In this document: positions 23,364 to 28,444 of the stretch, in pieces
How positions within the stretch are numbered: position 1 is the first letter of the stretch
Layout of the letters: the number at the start of each line of letters is the position of its first letter
From: a bacterium
GTDB lineage: Bacteria > Patescibacteriota > Patescibacteriia > HK-STAS-PATE-3
Length of the DNA stretch: 64,000 nucleotides
Direction: 5' to 3'
NCBI GenBank assembly: GCA_043800725.1
Contig: JAZDMR010000034.1
Coordinates: forward strand, 4,374 to 68,373
Position numbers and translations under genes: made by a program
Notes under the pieces: generated by a model
Databases searched by the model: none
The model's input: the letters and a program-made list of their open reading frames with translations, nothing else
Told to the model about the DNA's origin: nothing

Positions 23364-25898
23364 TTTGGTGATACTTTTTCCATGGAAAGCAATAAACCCA
23401 ACATTCTGAATAAATTTACTACCCATCTAAAGAAGACGCTGGAACAAGCTTCTGGTCTGGGTTTTGAATTGCGTCATGCTTTTGTAAATCCTGAGCATAT
23501 TTTATACGGATTATCCGAAAGCCGGGGCGGAATTGCCGCAGAAATACTATCCAAGGCCGGAGTAGATTCGGAAAAATTAAAAACATTCATCATTTCCCGC
23601 AATGAGCCCCTGACCGAGGATATCTCTTTTATCCCTGACCAGCTAAAATTATCCTTGCCGTCCAAAAAAGCCCTTGAAAAAGCCGGTCTGGTAGCTAATG
23701 AATACGCTCATAAATATGTTGGCACGGAACATTTGCTTTTTGGTCTCTTGGAATTAAATGATCCGACTTTGGAGAGATATTTTTCCGAACAGCAAATAAA
23801 GGTTAAAGAGGTTCGTCAGCATTTGATAGTAGTTTTAAAGAGCACTACCAAATTTCCAGACCTGACCGGCTTTTTTGATGTTTCAAAAGACAGCGAGGTG
23901 ATTGAGGAGGGTTTTATTAGCGACAAGGGGGGTAAAAATCCGGCCCTGGATTTCTTTACTAGCGATTTAACTGAGCCAAGCCTGCAAAAAACTATTGATC
24001 CGGTTATCGGTCGAATTAAAGAAATTGACCGGGTTATGCATATTTTATCCCGTAGAACAAAGAATAATCCGGTATTAATCGGTGATCCGGGTGTGGGTAA
24101 GACTGCTATCGTCGAAGGATTAGCAAAAAATATCACCGAGGGCAACGTGCCTGATGCCCTGAGAAATAAGCGCCTGCTTAATTTAGATATGAGCCTTTTG
24201 GTGGCCGGTACCATGTATCGCGGTGAATTTGAAAGCCGCCTGCGTCAAGTTATTGAGGAAATCAAATCCGATCCAAATATCATACTATTTATTGATGAGC
24301 TTCATACCATAGTGGGAACCGGCTCGGCCTCCGGCTCAATGGATGCGGCAAATATTCTCAAGCCGGCCCTGGCTAAAGGACAAATTAGATGTATTGGCGC
24401 TACTACCATTGATGAGTATCGTAAGCATATCGAAGCTGATGCTGCTTTGGAAAGGCGCTTTCAGCCGATTATGGTAGAAGAGCCCAGCCCAGAAGAAACT
24501 TTAACAATTTTAAAGGGAATCAAGCAAAACTATGAGCAGTTCCACCGCGTCTCAATTTCAGATGATGCTCTAGACTCAGCCGTTCAACTGAGCGTCAGGT
24601 ATATCCAAGATAAATTTTTGCCGGATAAAGCAATTGATCTTCTGGATGAAGCTTCTTCAAAACGAAAAATCAATCGTAAAAAAAGCCCTCTGGTAAAGCA
24701 ATATGAACAAATAGAAGAAATCATTTCCGAACTAGTTAGTCAAAAGCAAGCCGCTGTTAAAGAAGAAAACTTTGACCGGGCGATAACGATAAAACAGCAG
24801 GAAATGCTAGCTCGGCGCAAGCAACAAAAAATCAGAGAGAAAATGCTCAAAGAAGAACAGCGATTTGAGGGCACTATCACAGATCAAGATATTGCTGATG
24901 TCGTGGCCCGAACGACCGGAATTCCGGTCGAGGATCTGCTTAAAGAAGAAAAGCAAAAGCTGCTTAAACTGGAACAGTCATTAAACAGCCAAATTATCGG
25001 ACAAAATGAAGCTATTGAAAAAATCGCTAATTTTATCAGGCGCTCCCGGGTAGGCTTAAGCCATCCTAACAAGCCAATTGCTTCTTTTATATTCCTGGGC
25101 CCGTCCGGGGTAGGAAAAACTGAAACTGCAAAAAAAATCGCTGAAACTATTTTTGAGAATTCCAAATCGCTGATTAGAATTGATATGTCGGAATTTAGCG
25201 AAAGTTTCACCTCTTCTAAGCTGATCGGCGCCCCGGCTGGTTACGTGGGCTACAAAGACCAGAATTCTCTGACCGATCTGGTCAAAAGAAAGCCTTACTC
25301 GGTAATATTGTTAGACGAAATTGAAAAAGCTCATCCGGATATTTTTAATATTTTTTTGCAAGTGCTTGACGAAGGACAGCTGACTGACGGAGGCGGCCGG
25401 ACTGTGAATTTTAAAAACACCCTTATAATTATGACTTCCAACGTTGGGGTAGCTGAGCTTAATAATACAGCCAGGATGGGCTTTTCTGCTCCAGACGATT
25501 ACGCCGATAGCAACCTGGAGACCGAATATCAAAGAGTCAAAGAGCAGGTTCTCAAGGATCTGGAAAAAAAATTCCGACCGGAGTTTCTAAACCGTTTGGA
25601 CGAAATAATCGTTTTCCGGCCTCTCACTCAATCAGACGTTATCAAAATCGTCCGTTTGCAGATTGCTGAGCTGCAGGAGCGCCTAAAAGATCAAGAAATA
25701 GCTATCTCTGTCACACCGGCTGCTGAAAAGCTGATTGCCAAACAAGGATTTAAGCCGGAATACGGCGCTCGTGCAGTCCGTCGGGTAATCCAAAGCTCCA
25801 TTGAAAATCCTTTGGCTGGAAAACTGCTTGATAACGCCAATAATCAAGGACGCAAGATTGTAGTTGACGCTGAACAGGATAAAGTTATACTAAAATAA
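23337..25898 (+). CDS. clpC: ClpC/ClpB-family AAA+ chaperone ATPase (Clp N-domain repeats + two AAA modules). The probable true start is the ATG at 23382 (MESNKP...).
   Basis: Walker A motifs GDPGVGKT and GPSGVGKT. Walker B motifs ILFIDELH and [10 protein letters not shown]. Clp-N repeat region ([25 protein letters not shown]). Confidence 0.85.
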
Positions 25899-25937
25899 CC
25901 AGATAAAAAGCAAGGTGGCGATCAGTCAGCTTGTTTT

Positions 25938-26642
25938 ATGCATCAATTGAATAATATATCTCAAGCGCTCCTTGATCTGATCTTTCCGATCACCTGCTTG
26001 GGTTGTCAAAAAGAAGGCCCTTGGCTGTGCGCTGACTGCTGCGCTAAGCTGCCCCGAACCAAGAACCAATGTCCTTTTTGCAATCAGCCCAATAATAATT
26101 CACAAACCTGCCCTCGCTGCGCCGCAAAGAATTCTTTATCAGGGGCTCTCTCTTGCTTTGCTTACCAGCATCCTTTGGTCAAATCTTTGATTCATGGCGC
26201 TAAATATCGCTATTGGAAATCCATCCTGCCTCAACTTGCCCAACAAATGGCTAAAAAAGTCGAGCAAAATAATAAAATTATCAACATTAAAAATTCCTGG
26301 GTAATCACCCCGGTTCCTTTACATAGATCCAAACACAAAATAAGGGGGTATAATCAATCACTGTTATTAGCGCAAGGTATTTCTGCTTACTTGGACGCTC
26401 CCCTTTCTAGGGATTTGGTTCGATCAACCAATACTCAAGCACAAGCCAAGCTTGGTAAACAGGCAAGATTTGCCAATGTGAATGGGGTATTTTCATTAAA
26501 ATCGAATATTGATTTTTCAAGCAAATCTGTTATAATCATCGATGATGTGTTCACTACAGGAGCTACCCTGGATTCAGCAGCTCGGATCTGCCAAGAGCAC
26601 GGCGCCAAAAAGGTTTGGGGACTTACTTTTGCCCATGGATAG
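25938..26642 (+). CDS. comF: ComF-family phosphoribosyltransferase (competence protein ComFC-like, 234 aa).
   Basis: N-terminal double zinc-ribbon (CLGCQKEGPWLCADCC...CPFCNQ...CPRC) and a C-terminal PRTase motif (VIIIDDVFTTGATL). Confidence 0.75.
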   Translation: MHQLNNISQALLDLIFPITCLGCQKEGPWLCADCCAKLPRTKNQCPFCNQPNNNSQTCPRCAAKNSLSGALSCFAYQHPLVKSLIHGAKYRYWKSILPQLAQQMAKKVEQNNKIINIKNSWVITPVPLHRSKHKIRGYNQSLLLAQGISAYLDAPLSRDLVRSTNTQAQAKLGKQARFANVNGVFSLKSNIDFSSKSVIIIDDVFTTGATLDSAARICQEHGAKKVWGLTFAHG

Positions 26643-26649
26643 TAATACC

Positions 26650-26667
26650 AATACCAGGAGAGGTGCG
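26650..26667 (+). repeat. 18-nt exact copy of the 5' flank plus 5' acceptor region of tRNA-Ser(GCT) (AATACCAGGAGAGGTGCG); the second copy is at 26976..26993.
   Basis: Direct sequence comparison. This copy lies at the base of an imperfect hairpin (GGAGA-GGTGCG-TGTCC-AGACG-GGACA-TCTCC). Confidence 0.6.
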
Positions 26668-26982
26668 TGTCCAGACGGGACATCTCCCGCAGGCATGACT
26701 AAACCAAAACACTCATGTTCTACGTGTACTTTTTAAAAAAAAGTCAGCGGAATGGCGATTTATATATCGGATCTTGCGAGGATTTAACCATTCGCGATAA
26801 AAGGCATAATCTTGGTTTTGTACGGTCCATAAAAACAAATCAAACCTGGAAAACTAGTAGGCTATGAGAAGCATTCTACCTGCGGCGATGCGGTTCAACG
26901 TGAACGCTTTGTGAGCGCTTTCTTAAAACCGGTCAACAAAAAGAACAGGTAAAAAAAAGAGATTTGATAAATACTAATACCA

Positions 26983-27073
26983 GGAGAGGTGCGCCGAATG
27001 GTAAGGCAGCGGTTTGCTAAACCGTAACGGTCTTTAAAGCCGTTTGTGGGTTCGACTCCCACCCTCTCCGCCA
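26983..27073 (+). tRNA. tRNA-Ser (anticodon GCT), type II with a long variable arm and an encoded CCA.
   Basis: Acceptor GGAGAGG/CCTCTCC. Anticodon stem GCGGT/ACCGT with loop TTGCTAA. Long variable arm AACGGTCTTTAAAGCCGTT. T arm GTGGG-TTCGACT-CCCAC. Discriminator G followed by CCA. Confidence 0.8.
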
Positions 27074-27196
27074 CACTTCGCAAAAAGCTTCGTATGGCTC
27101 GAAGCTACATAATCCGACATTTAATACAATAAGCTAGGACGACATAAATAGTAAAACGAAGTGTGTAACCCGGAATAAAAGTGAAGGGTTACCAAA

Positions 27197-27436
27197 ATGA
27201 ATAATATGCATACGGTATATTTACTAAAATTATCTAATAATAAAATATACACTTGCTCAACTCCGAATATTCAACGAAGAATACAAGAGAACAATAAAGG
27301 ACTTTCTCAAGCAACTCGAAAATATACTCCCGTAAAACTACTCTGGTATTGAGTCTTCCCTAATAGACTAACTGCTCGTAGATTTGAGCGCTACCTAAAA
27401 ATGGCTCTGGACAAGCATTCCGGACTAAACGTCTAA
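27197..27436 (+). pseudogene. GIY-YIG nuclease-superfamily small ORF (YhbQ/UPF0213-like, ~79 aa) interrupted by an in-frame TGA at 27350-27352.
   Basis: Translation MNNMHTVYLLKLSNNKIYTCSTPNIQRRIQENNKGLSQATRKYTPVKLLWY-[TGA]-VFPNRLTARRFERYLKMALDKHSGLNV. The GIY-YIG pattern (VYLL...KIY.G.T.N...R...H) spans both sides of the stop in a single frame. Neither half is 60 aa, so the ORF track misses it. Confidence 0.5.
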
Positions 27437-27585
27437 TAACTCAGAGTTTATTTAATCCTAACACTCAATGATAACATTAAGGGTGGGCTGGCTGAGTGGT
27501 CTTCACCGCCAAGCGGGATCCCGCCTTCTATATTATAAATATCCAGCGAGGCGGGAAAAGCGACGGTCTTGTCCCGCAGCATGGT

Positions 27586-27675
27586 GGAGGCGTGACAGAG
27601 TGGACGATTGTACCGGTCTTGAAAACCGGAGTGCCTGAAAGGGCACCGGAGGTTCGAATCCTCCCGCCTCCGCCA
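27586..27675 (+). tRNA. tRNA-Ser (anticodon TGA), type II, with an encoded CCA.
   Basis: Acceptor GGAGGCG/CGCCTCC. D stem ACAG/TTGT. Anticodon stem CCGGT/ACCGG with loop CTTGAAA. Long variable arm AGTGCCTGAAAGGGCACC. T arm GGAGG-TTCGAAT-CCTCC. Discriminator G followed by CCA. Confidence 0.8.
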
Positions 27676-27688
27676 TGCTGCGGGAGAA

Positions 27689-27703
27689 TCCACCCTCTCC
27701 GCC
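27689..27703 (+). repeat. Degenerate copy of the 3' end of tRNA-Ser(GCT) (TCCACCCTCTCCGCC; the tRNA has CCCACCCTCTCCGCC at 27059..27073).
   Basis: Direct sequence comparison: 14/15 identity to the T-arm and acceptor 3' strand of the tRNA at 26983..27073. Confidence 0.5.
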
Positions 27704-27766
27704 TTCTTACGGAATAATGATGCTTCTCCCATCGCCAATTAAATAATTTTTTAACGAAATAAACAT

Positions 27767-28258
27767 ATGCCCGAAGAAAACAACGATTTCGGAAAAGTGC
27801 TAATGTCCTGGGAATTCCCCTCGCACATCAAACAAAAAAGAAATCGACGCTGGTACACTATTGCCGGAATAATCGGTGGATTAAGCTTTGCTTTCGCGGT
27901 AATCACCCTGAACTTTCTGTTTGCTTTCATCCTGATCATGATCGTACTTATTATGGTTATGCAGAATCGACAAGAACCGAGTAAGATTATCTGCAACATT
28001 ACCGAGGATGGCATAAAGATGGCTGATGATTTTTTTAAGTATGATGATCTGAAGGAGTTTTGGATTGCCTATAAACCGCCTGAGGTGAAAAAATTGTATC
28101 TTATCTTTAGAAGCTCGCTGAGACCCATGCTAATCATCCCGCTTGAGGAACAGAATCCTTTAAAAATACGCAAAGTTTTACTGGTTTATTTGGATGAAAA
28201 CTTGTCTCAAGAAGATGAAACAACCACTGAAGCCCTGGGTCGTTTACTTAAATTCTAA
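27767..28258 (+). CDS. Hypothetical membrane protein (163 aa).
   Basis: Two hydrophobic helices (IAGIIGGLSFAFAVITLNFLFAFILIMIVLIMV). No recognisable motif. Confidence 0.5.
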   Translation: MPEENNDFGKVLMSWEFPSHIKQKRNRRWYTIAGIIGGLSFAFAVITLNFLFAFILIMIVLIMVMQNRQEPSKIICNITEDGIKMADDFFKYDDLKEFWIAYKPPEVKKLYLIFRSSLRPMLIIPLEEQNPLKIRKVLLVYLDENLSQEDETTTEALGRLLKF

Positions 28259-28280: not shown

Positions 28281-28351
28281 GGTGGATCAGCCTATAGCTG
28301 AGGATAGAGCACAGGCTTGCTCTCGCCTTTCGGCGGTATAAACTCCGCCTT
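28281..28351 (+). other. Degenerate tRNA-Arg-like fragment (pseudo-tRNA) immediately upstream of the intact tRNA-Arg.
   Basis: TATAGCTGAGGATAGAGCACAGGCTTGC closely matches the D-arm and anticodon-arm region of the downstream tRNA (TAGCTCAGTTGGATAGAGCGCAGGCTTGC), but the acceptor and T arms cannot be folded. Confidence 0.3.
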
Positions 28352-28367
28352 TAACATTCATGATATG

Positions 28368-28444
28368 CGCCCGTAGCTCAGTTGGATAGAGCGCAGGCTT
28401 GCGGAGCCTGAGGTCGTAGGTTCGATCCCTGCCGGGCGCACCAG
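28368..28444 (+). tRNA. tRNA-Arg (anticodon GCG as read) with an encoded CCA.
   Basis: Acceptor GCGCCCG/CGGGCGC. D arm GCTC-AGTTGGATA-GAGC. Anticodon stem CAGGC/GCCTG with loop TTGCGGA. T arm GTAGG-TTCGATC-CCTGC. Discriminator A followed by CCA. Confidence 0.8.

Follow-up and report, generated by a model that had tools for sequence, protein, structure and literature searches.

In fungal mitochondria, free-standing open reading frames (ORFs) for GIY-YIG enzymes insert at the 3′ ends of genes and leave a duplicated 3′ fragment downstream. The Seg proteins and I-TevI, which are ~200–250 residues long and carry C-terminal DNA-binding modules, belong to the homing endonuclease (HEase)/UvrC+ lineage. 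T4 SegB, the product of a gene in a transfer RNA (tRNA) cluster, is described as promoting the preferential inheritance of itself and of the neighbouring tRNA region (PMC2330249). The prokaryotic Slx1 family of GIY-YIG proteins has been described as minimal, largely vertically inherited and with a predicted role in repair; the selfish GIY-YIG enzymes derive from the other (UvrC+) lineage, and a C-terminal Asn marks the UvrC/HEase lineage (Dunin-Horkawicz et al. 2006, PMC1564403). Here, we analyse a GIY-YIG reading frame, GIY#2, that is interrupted by a TGA codon and lies among tRNA genes in a 64-kb stretch of DNA from a member of the Patescibacteria (contig JAZDMR010000034.1; the whole stretch of 64,000 nucleotides (nt) is referred to as the window). 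The features described between 26644 and 27703 are on the forward strand, apart from a hairpin motif at 27076.

A GIY-YIG gene with a nonsense codon and a frameshift

Positions 27197–27436 translate into 80 codons, of which one inside the frame, codon 52 (27350–27352), is a stop, TGA. When the TGA is masked, residues 4–73 of the ORF match the Pfam GIY-YIG family (PF01541) with 45.6 bits (E = 8.8e-12, cutoff 22.6), compared with 28.1 bits for the 51-residue N-terminal part alone, and the homology therefore extends past the TGA. A phmmer search of 1.84 billion representative proteins gave 833 matches at E ≤ 1e-3, the best with E = 4.4e-18 and 56% identity, and most of the alignments cover query residues 3–70, that is, both sides of the stop. 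Conserved positions on the two sides had been pointed out in a first-pass annotation made from the letters of the sequence alone, and these results bear it out. The matches came from the exhaustive HMMER search; a word-index protein search with the reconstructed ORF returned no match.

The first-pass annotation had also described the frame as continuous except for the one TGA. Its GIY-YIG character across the stop holds; its continuity does not. We aligned the ORF with its 26 best homologues (alignment A1) and scanned a hidden Markov model (HMM) of intact relatives over all six-frame stop-to-stop fragments of the window. The family HMM matches GIY#2 in three collinear pieces in two frames. The first piece (27185–27349) covers HMM positions 1–48 with 60.6 bits (E = 1.5e-17, hmmsearch), and the second (27353–27433), whose frame is unchanged, covers positions 50–67 with 19.5 bits (E = 1.1e-4), so that the TGA falls exactly at HMM position 49. 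The third piece (27388–27468), in the other frame, covers positions 65–78.

From these pieces the parts of the gene can be placed as follows. The start is the ATG at 27206 rather than that at 27197, MHTVY in the window aligning with MYYVY in the family, and the N-terminal part then runs from 27206 to 27349 (HMM 1–48). The middle part, 27353–27396, corresponds to HMM position 50 to about 65 and carries the catalytic-Glu motif FERYLK. Past this motif the in-frame tail (MALDKHSGLNV, after the K at 27398–27400) is without homology, and the other frame reads KNGSGQAFRTKRLI, the C-terminus of the family, where the best matches have YLKTGSGQAFRNKRLV. These two observations locate a 1-nt deletion in the run of five A residues at 27397–27401, where comparison of the frames leads one to expect six; one added A (CTA AAA AAT GGC) would restore L-K-N-G. 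The C-terminal part (…NGSGQAFRTKRLITQSLFNPNTQ) is thus out of frame and occupies 27402–27474, the ancestral gene ending at 27468 and the two stops, TGA TAA, lying at 27469–27474.

Column statistics were calculated from 265 homologues, of which 115 form the closest subfamily. The column of the stop is Cys in 106 of these 115 and in 9 of the 20 best matches, and where the window has WY*VF, homologues have WYCVF or WFCAF. Cys is therefore the residue expected at this site, which an alignment of homologues had been suggested to reveal, and the change from TGY to TGA is a single substitution. In the wider family position 49 may be E, C, A, I or S, and it has no catalytic role. Two other changes affect positions that hardly vary: the glycine of the YIG motif, present in 259/265 homologues, is Cys in the window copy, and the His of the α1 helix, present in all 265, is Asn. 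The Tyr of GIY, the Tyr of YIG, the Arg and the Glu are all kept, and the loss of the YIG Gly and of the His makes this copy a degenerate member of the family.

There are thus at least four lesions: the nonsense TGA, the frameshift, YIG Gly to Cys, and His to Asn. The frameshift displaces the last ~13 conserved codons (HMM positions 65–67 onward). The only product that can be made without recoding is a 48-residue stub from 27206 (51 residues if the ATG at 27197 is used), from which the catalytic Glu is absent, and so no nuclease is made. GIY#2 is a pseudogene, the uninterrupted frame of a functional gene being absent. We consider it very probable that 27206–27468 is the dead remnant of a minimal GIY-YIG gene of ~78–88 codons, of the Slx1-like/UPF0213 type, and the relic of a tRNA-linked cassette. 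Inactivation of a GIY-YIG nuclease gene, one of the options in the first-pass annotation, agrees with the nonsense codon, the frameshift and the two changes of invariant residues; that the inactivation was recent does not sit well with at least four lesions.

Sequencing error, recoding and the genetic code

The lesions could in principle lie in the data rather than in the genome, with a true TGC or TGT at 27350 and an intact gene. The sequence is metagenome-assembled, being part of MAG GCA_043827125.1 on contig JBDRPK010000004.1, the frameshift lies within a homopolymer, and the nonsense codon and the frameshift are each single-nucleotide events; these points speak for such an error. A separately built Logan contig (SRR26275510) is, however, 100% identical over 25322–27638 (2,317 nt), a region that includes both lesion sites. 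Two separate errors no more than 50 nt apart would be needed, one base error being unable to yield four lesions, and with both corrected the His and the YIG Gly would still be replaced. Errors of the homopolymer type would not produce the TGA or the two missense changes. Furthermore, a second GIY-YIG copy ~500 nt upstream is also broken, so that decay is the local norm. Sequencing or assembly error, which had been left open as an option, is on this evidence very improbable.

We regard local recoding as slightly less probable again. It would have UGA read as selenocysteine or read through, possibly together with a −1 slip on A-AAA-A, yielding full-length nuclease at a low level. A UGA aligned with Cys is the classic signature of a selenoprotein, the A run is a possible slippery site, and low expression would suit a selfish nuclease. 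There is, however, no stem-loop resembling a selenocysteine insertion sequence (SECIS): the 61 nt from the UGA fold with z = −1.6 and form only a 5-bp hairpin. The window contains neither a tRNA-Sec nor a UGA suppressor; ARAGORN identifies three tRNAs in it, for Ser(GCT), Ser(TGA) and Arg(GCG), and a UGA-reading (TCA) anticodon is not among them. The position concerned varies across the wider family and is non-catalytic. Two independent and inefficient events would be required, and no stimulatory structure was found. Decoding of the UGA would leave the product out of frame beyond the A run, and the invariant His and Gly would be missing from it as before. Readthrough, the more exotic of the earlier suggestions, is unlikely for the same reasons.

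A genome-wide or regional reassignment (code 4 or 25) has a precedent in its favour, since UGA is translated as Gly in some lineages of the candidate phyla radiation. With translation table 11, 37 long ORFs cover 93% of the window; 25 of them end in TAA, 7 in TAG and 5 in TGA, and several of the TGA codons are in 4-nt overlaps of the ATGA type with the next gene. Reassignment is refuted by these figures and its probability is practically nil; moreover, neither Gly nor Trp but Cys is expected at this site. The genome thus uses the standard code, and the earlier view that TGA acts as a stop elsewhere in the window, with genome-wide reassignment unlikely, is upheld.

The nuclease family

A profile of the intact relatives, compared with sequences from the Protein Data Bank, matches 1zg2 (BH0048) with E = 8e-16 and 1ywl (EF2693) with E = 3.3e-9. 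Eukaryotic SLX1 is matched with E between 5e-7 and 1e-4, and I-TevI only with E = 0.059. No NCBIfam model reaches its cutoff for the family; TIGR01453 (group-I-intron endonuclease) gives 25.4 bits on an intact relative, where the cutoff is 56, and no score on the window copy. The domain ends ~17 residues past the catalytic Glu, and alignment A2, a sequence alignment only, is without an invariant Asn there. Judged from the profile matches and model scores, the family is one of minimal, domain-only GIY-YIG proteins of the Slx1-like/UPF0213 type and not of I-TevI-type homing endonucleases. "Homing-type", the term used in the first-pass annotation, does not fit as a description of the family, whose members have ~78 residues and no DNA-binding domain. 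The genomic context nevertheless suggests selfish behaviour.

The family is very large, with at least 7,876 proteins at E ≤ 1e-10 among the 8,000 candidates scored. The best 120 listed members are nearly all 78–112 residues long, mostly 78–86, and the named sources are mostly Patescibacteria (Falkow-, Berkel-, Levy-, Uhr-, Woyke-, Wildermuth- and Komeilibacteria). Related loci are rare in viruses: there are two in 2.9 million viral contigs (IMG/VR), compared with at least 558 in metagenomes. An origin in phage was considered and rejected, the two IMG/VR loci being without a tRNA. Protein P0285, taken at one point for an intact paralogue in the same genome, comes from a sister metagenome-assembled genome (MAG), GCA_043820855.1.

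Relatives lie behind tRNA and tmRNA genes

The surroundings of the family were analysed in 80 metagenomic loci with close relatives, together with the locus of the best match. Of the 60 loci with enough upstream sequence, 41 have a same-strand tRNA (ARAGORN) ending 50–260 nt upstream of the ORF, and none has an upstream tRNA on the opposite strand. Ser tRNAs account for 24 of the 49 loci with an upstream tRNA, and 15 other tRNA species are represented. In five further loci (including L017/L018, L023, L027 and L033) ARAGORN places a transfer-messenger RNA (tmRNA, ssrA) ending just upstream, and by eye the cassette also lies behind a tmRNA in L016, L048, L056, L066 and L076; most of the remaining loci have, again by eye, a 3′ fragment of a tmRNA or tRNA directly before the leader described below. 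The cassettes behind tmRNA begin right after its tRNA-like CCA end.

Three loci (L006, L011 and L030) have the exact arrangement of the window, tRNA-Ser(GCT), ORF and tRNA-Ser(TGA), with the ORF intact, and L088, which belongs to a sister MAG generated in the same project, has tRNA-Ser(GCT), leader and intact ORF. ORFs that are ~80% identical at the nucleotide level are found behind different tRNAs (Asp and Ser in one case, Ser(GCT) and Gln in another).

In 9 of 47 loci the upstream tRNA has its 3′ end repeated exactly, over 12–20 nt, at a distance of 0–75 nt past the stop of the ORF; the repeated part begins in the T-loop or T-stem and reaches the terminus. The control was a comparison of tRNA ends with the downstream regions of other loci, and the nine score above its 99th percentile. 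The only ORF between the repeats is that of the GIY-YIG protein (with tRNA-Ser(TGA) in addition in the window); no integrase, recombinase or other homologous ORF is found there. In three loci (L010, L028 and L042) the tRNA 3′ fragment before the leader differs from the resident tRNA, and it looks as if the unit had carried the fragment along. The first-pass annotation had noted duplications of tRNA fragments next to the gene; these are confirmed by direct repeats in the window, described below, and by the repeats in relatives.

Several of the loci have features of their own. In L064 (2735–3055) the first GIY-YIG ORF is followed in tandem by a second of another subfamily (…LYYETF…REMFFK), and past both ORFs the 3′ end of tRNA-Ser is repeated over 29 nt; the pair mirrors the two different remnants of the window. 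Many ORFs (in L007, L022, L026, L030, L035, L044, L045 and others) lie ~50–300 nt from the end of their contig, as would be expected if cassettes or leaders repeated within a genome break assemblies.

A conserved structured leader

The window has a conserved leader at 27071–27205, which begins with the tRNA's CCA and stops just short of the ATG at 27206. It has two helices, P1 (27073–27080 paired with 27157–27164) and P2 (27165–27171 paired with 27186–27192), the latter with a small apical stem, and it folds with a minimum free energy of −29.2 kcal/mol (z = −3.26), a value reached in 0 of 200 shuffles. In general the leader starts with CCA-CAC(A)CTTCGC directly after the tRNA and then has a hairpin, or two, and a stretch rich in A and T. 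The sequence GCGAAGTGTG, which comes next, pairs with the start of the leader to give P1, and P1 begins at A76 of the tRNA. P2 has the form stem, GAA, GC, tetraloop, GC, GAA, stem, and the ATG is 5–25 nt beyond it.

This GA-hairpin motif occurs 65 times in the loci and 4 times in shuffled sequence. Each location has one fixed orientation: the motif is on the minus strand between −150 and −60 relative to the ATG, on the plus strand between −60 and 0, and once more on the plus strand just past the ORF. The only occurrence above chance in the window, at 27076 (minus), is at the cassette, three other matches being at chance level, and the possibility that the motif is a genome-wide repeat of the repetitive extragenic palindrome (REP) kind was therefore rejected, since in the window it is confined to the cassette. 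Tandem arrays of GA-type hairpins (e.g. GCCCTACGAAGCCTTGGCGAAGTAGGGC), which are REP-like, adjoin the ORF in L021, L037, L054, L061 and L070. In L024, at about 2280–2400, an apparent tRNA gene upstream of the cassette leader carries the motif (GTCCCTCGTAGCCGTTTAGGCGAAGTGGGAG) in the region of the D-loop; ARAGORN makes no call for this gene.

RNAalifold, applied to a MAFFT alignment of 17 leaders, gives P1 and P2 with compensatory changes in 10 of 16 pairs. Cells of P1 and P2 are paired in 95.9% of cases, compared with 82% when columns are shuffled (0 of 500 shuffles reach the observed value) and 33–52% in slid controls. Many of the pairs are G-U, which indicates selection on the sense strand and thus on an RNA rather than a DNA cruciform. 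A covariance model of the leader (R1) finds one full-length copy in the window, 27071–27208, with 71.8 bits, this sequence being part of the seed. Amongst loci outside the seed, a full leader directly in front of the ORF is identified by R1 in L014, L028, L007, L015, L011, L074, L033, L069, L051, L049, L025, L088, L012, L013 and L065; there is no match in the control loci L003 and L004. Apart from matches derived from tRNA, Rfam 15 has nothing at E ≤ 1 for the leaders of the window and 18 loci. From its covariation, which gives good support, the leader, of about 90–150 nt, is a candidate for a new RNA family. A role as guide RNA was considered and rejected, the longest match to the leader's own tRNA having a mean of 6.08 and that to other tRNAs 5.97.

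In one locus (L049) there are two nearly identical leaders, the first (2369–2503) between tRNA-Tyr and the GIY-YIG ORF and the second (2816–2945) between tRNA-Thr and rpmG. It could be argued that the ORF of the window is dead and its locus kept for a function of the leader RNA itself, such as processing or stabilising a co-transcript with the tRNA, in which case the link with tRNA would be functional. The leader of the window is still folded, with covarying pairs, despite the broken ORF, its G-U pairs show selection at the level of RNA, and the copy before rpmG has no nuclease ORF behind it. Nevertheless, R1 leaders are found almost only directly upstream of GIY-YIG ORFs despite some 40 other tRNAs in the loci, related ORFs stand behind at least 16 tRNA species and tmRNA, and the duplications of tRNA 3′ ends and the foreign 3′ fragments point to insertion. 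We consider this explanation improbable, although it is the least so of the alternatives weighed here, and prefer to see the leader as part of a unit with the nuclease ORF.

The tRNA region of the window

GIY#2 is one of two remnants in this part of the window. Directly in front of its leader is an intact tRNA-Ser(GCT) at 26983–27073 (ARAGORN; Rfam tRNA, 56.2 bits), and upstream of that tRNA is a more decayed remnant, GIY#1, at 26715–26954. The family HMM finds GIY#1 in pieces at 26703–26864 (HMM 1–43, 28 bits), 26833–26949 (weak) and 26904–27017 (HMM 60–76, "CERFLKTGQQKEQVKKR"), and as these are split over three frames there must be at least two frameshifts. The N-terminal part scores 19.4 bits against Pfam, which is under the cutoff, and the sequence (…WKLVGYE…RERF…LK) belongs to a somewhat different subfamily from that of GIY#2. 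GIY#1 is bounded by a 24-nt direct repeat (D2): the left copy, 26644–26667, consists of 13 nt of upstream flank and the first 11 nt of tRNA-Ser(GCT), and the right copy, 26970–26993, which is 96% identical, runs into the intact tRNA. Beyond GIY#1 and GIY#2 the family HMM finds no further GIY-YIG copy in the 64-kb window.

Downstream of GIY#2 is a tRNA-Ser-like 5′ fragment (GGGTGGGCTGGCTGAGTGGTCTTCACC) at 27481–27507, read by eye, which extends to the anticodon loop and was judged, also by eye, to be homologous to a fragment at 495–535 in L030. In L030 an intact tRNA is nested between the 5′ and 3′ fragments of another tRNA-Ser; the locus is only distantly related to the window, yet has the same order of ORF, 5′ fragment and tRNA-Ser(TGA). 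In the window the fragment is followed by tRNA-Ser(TGA) at 27586–27675 (ARAGORN, Rfam), which is flanked by an inverted repeat of 27 nt (I1) with arms at 27569–27595 and 27662–27688 that are 89% complementary. The arms (leader CCCGCAGCATGGT, trailer CCATGCTGCGGG) would lengthen the acceptor stem of this tRNA by ~13 bp. The leader arm occurs a third time at 26678–26697, where it adjoins a tRNA-Ser 5′ fragment, and an analogous pairing of leader and trailer is found around tRNA-Ser(tga) in L030. Beyond tRNA-Ser(TGA), the last 14 nt at 27059–27072 of tRNA-Ser(GCT) (CCACCCTCTCCGCC, D7) recur with 100% identity at 27690–27703. In the window, tRNA-Ser(GCT) is thus followed by the leader, the gene and this repeat of its own 3′ end, and the "tRNA island" of 1.1 kb is made up of two wrecked cassettes and tRNA scars.

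Further downstream, a 5′-half fragment of tRNA-Arg(GCG), ~30 nt long and reaching to the anticodon loop, lies at 28291–28320, 47 nt upstream of the intact gene at 28367–28443; a core of 19 nt is 95% identical. A scan of 26550–27800 found no sigma-70-like promoter, which is weak evidence either way. Using the neighbouring ComF as a marker for close relatives, the genomes of GTDB species gave only Bacteroidales at 30–31% identity, and the best match in a set of 5.8 billion proteins had 42% identity.

A possible mobile cassette

We tentatively propose that the family forms selfish cassettes of Patescibacteria, each consisting of a domain-only, Slx1-like ORF and a leader that starts at A76, which would move among tRNA-like 3′ ends and leave duplications of 12–29 nt. 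This is a possibility that we rate at a little less than an even chance.

The cassette has no recognisable promoter, and its transcription would come from the promoter of the tRNA. Processing of the tRNA 3′ end would then free an mRNA with the P1 helix at its 5′ end as a stabilising cap. P2 would hide a purine-rich stretch (GCGAAGG..., or AAGGAGG in a second type of leader) that is a putative ribosome-binding site, and this occlusion would keep expression of the nuclease low. Other selfish endonuclease genes are also kept at low expression. A break made by the nuclease would start the spread from one tRNA-like 3′ end to another, and recombination through the conserved T-arm and acceptor sequences would complete it, the displaced tRNA 3′ end being the scar. 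After fixation the ORF would no longer be needed and would decay, and the two wrecks in the window would represent this end state. As a weaker possibility, the leader RNA or the GA-hairpins may be a substrate of the nuclease or determine its specificity.

A number of points weigh against these proposals. Exact repeats are found in only about 20% of the loci, and in the window the 14-nt repeat lies ~220 nt beyond the ancestral stop and past tRNA-Ser(TGA), compared with 0–75 nt in the nine relatives. To our knowledge there is no mechanism by which a GIY-YIG nuclease would duplicate 12–20 nt. Mobility is inferred from the scars and from the distribution of the cassettes, no pair of filled and empty sites having been found. 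The leader before rpmG in L049 indicates that a leader can exist, or be duplicated, without a nuclease ORF, and the window leader, which still folds well with its pairs kept, could mean either that the ORF died fairly recently or that the leader has a function independent of it. As regards the death of GIY#2, the Logan contig was perhaps built from the MAG's own read set and an error in the A5 homopolymer is not formally excluded. Finally, there is no close relative in the databases that would show the ancestral state of this exact locus or the age of its lesions.

Seen by itself, the gene in the window looks like an ordinary dead gene; it should be annotated as a pseudogene and is not evidence for recoding of stop codons. 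This dead copy has, however, led to a very abundant family with a strict anatomy: the 3′ end of a tRNA or tmRNA, a leader, a GIY-YIG ORF of 78 residues and a repeat of the tRNA 3′ end. The family of cassettes looks to be undescribed, no description having been found in the searchable open-access literature, including a 2026 paper on tRNA genes of Patescibacteria. Were the proposal true, a minimal GIY-YIG nuclease would drive a process similar to homing or transposition and aimed at tRNA genes. If mobile, the cassettes would rank with the smallest known selfish elements that code for a protein, and they would show that minimal GIY-YIG domains of the Slx1-like type can be selfish, despite belonging to a lineage seen as one of vertically inherited repair enzymes. 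Mobility would also help to explain two features of genomes of the candidate phyla, the clutter of tRNA fragments and the contig breaks that often lie near these nuclease genes.

Comparison with known systems

The closest proteins are those of the Slx1-like/UPF0213 group (BH0048, 1ZG2; EF2693, 1YWL; YazA/YhbQ), which, like the family described here, are single domains of ~80–100 residues without an auxiliary domain. The present family differs from them in lying behind many tRNA and tmRNA genes, in its structured leader, in the repeats of tRNA 3′ ends and in the readiness with which it decays, and the window copy differs further in being non-functional. T4 SegB resembles it in being encoded by an intron-free GIY-YIG gene situated between tRNA genes. 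In contrast to SegB and I-TevI, however, the proteins of this family, at ~78 residues, have no room for a binding domain, and they are cellular rather than phage-borne.

Two further comparisons concern the site of the cassette rather than its protein. Islands of tyrosine integrases share with it a position directly 3′ of a tRNA or tmRNA, the preservation of an intact tRNA, and a direct repeat at the far end that runs from the T-loop to the terminus; the cassette differs in having no integrase, in the small size of the insert, ~0.35–0.5 kb for the leader and an ORF of 240 nt, and in its repeats of 12–29 nt. The free-standing ORFs of fungal mitochondria are similar in that a selfish GIY-YIG gene sits at the end of an essential gene, with the functional end rebuilt on one side and the displaced fragment on the other. 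The mitochondrial ORFs, however, are hosted by protein-coding genes and encode I-TevI-like enzymes that have DNA-binding domains, whereas the cassette is hosted by tRNA and tmRNA genes and its enzyme consists of the GIY-YIG domain alone.

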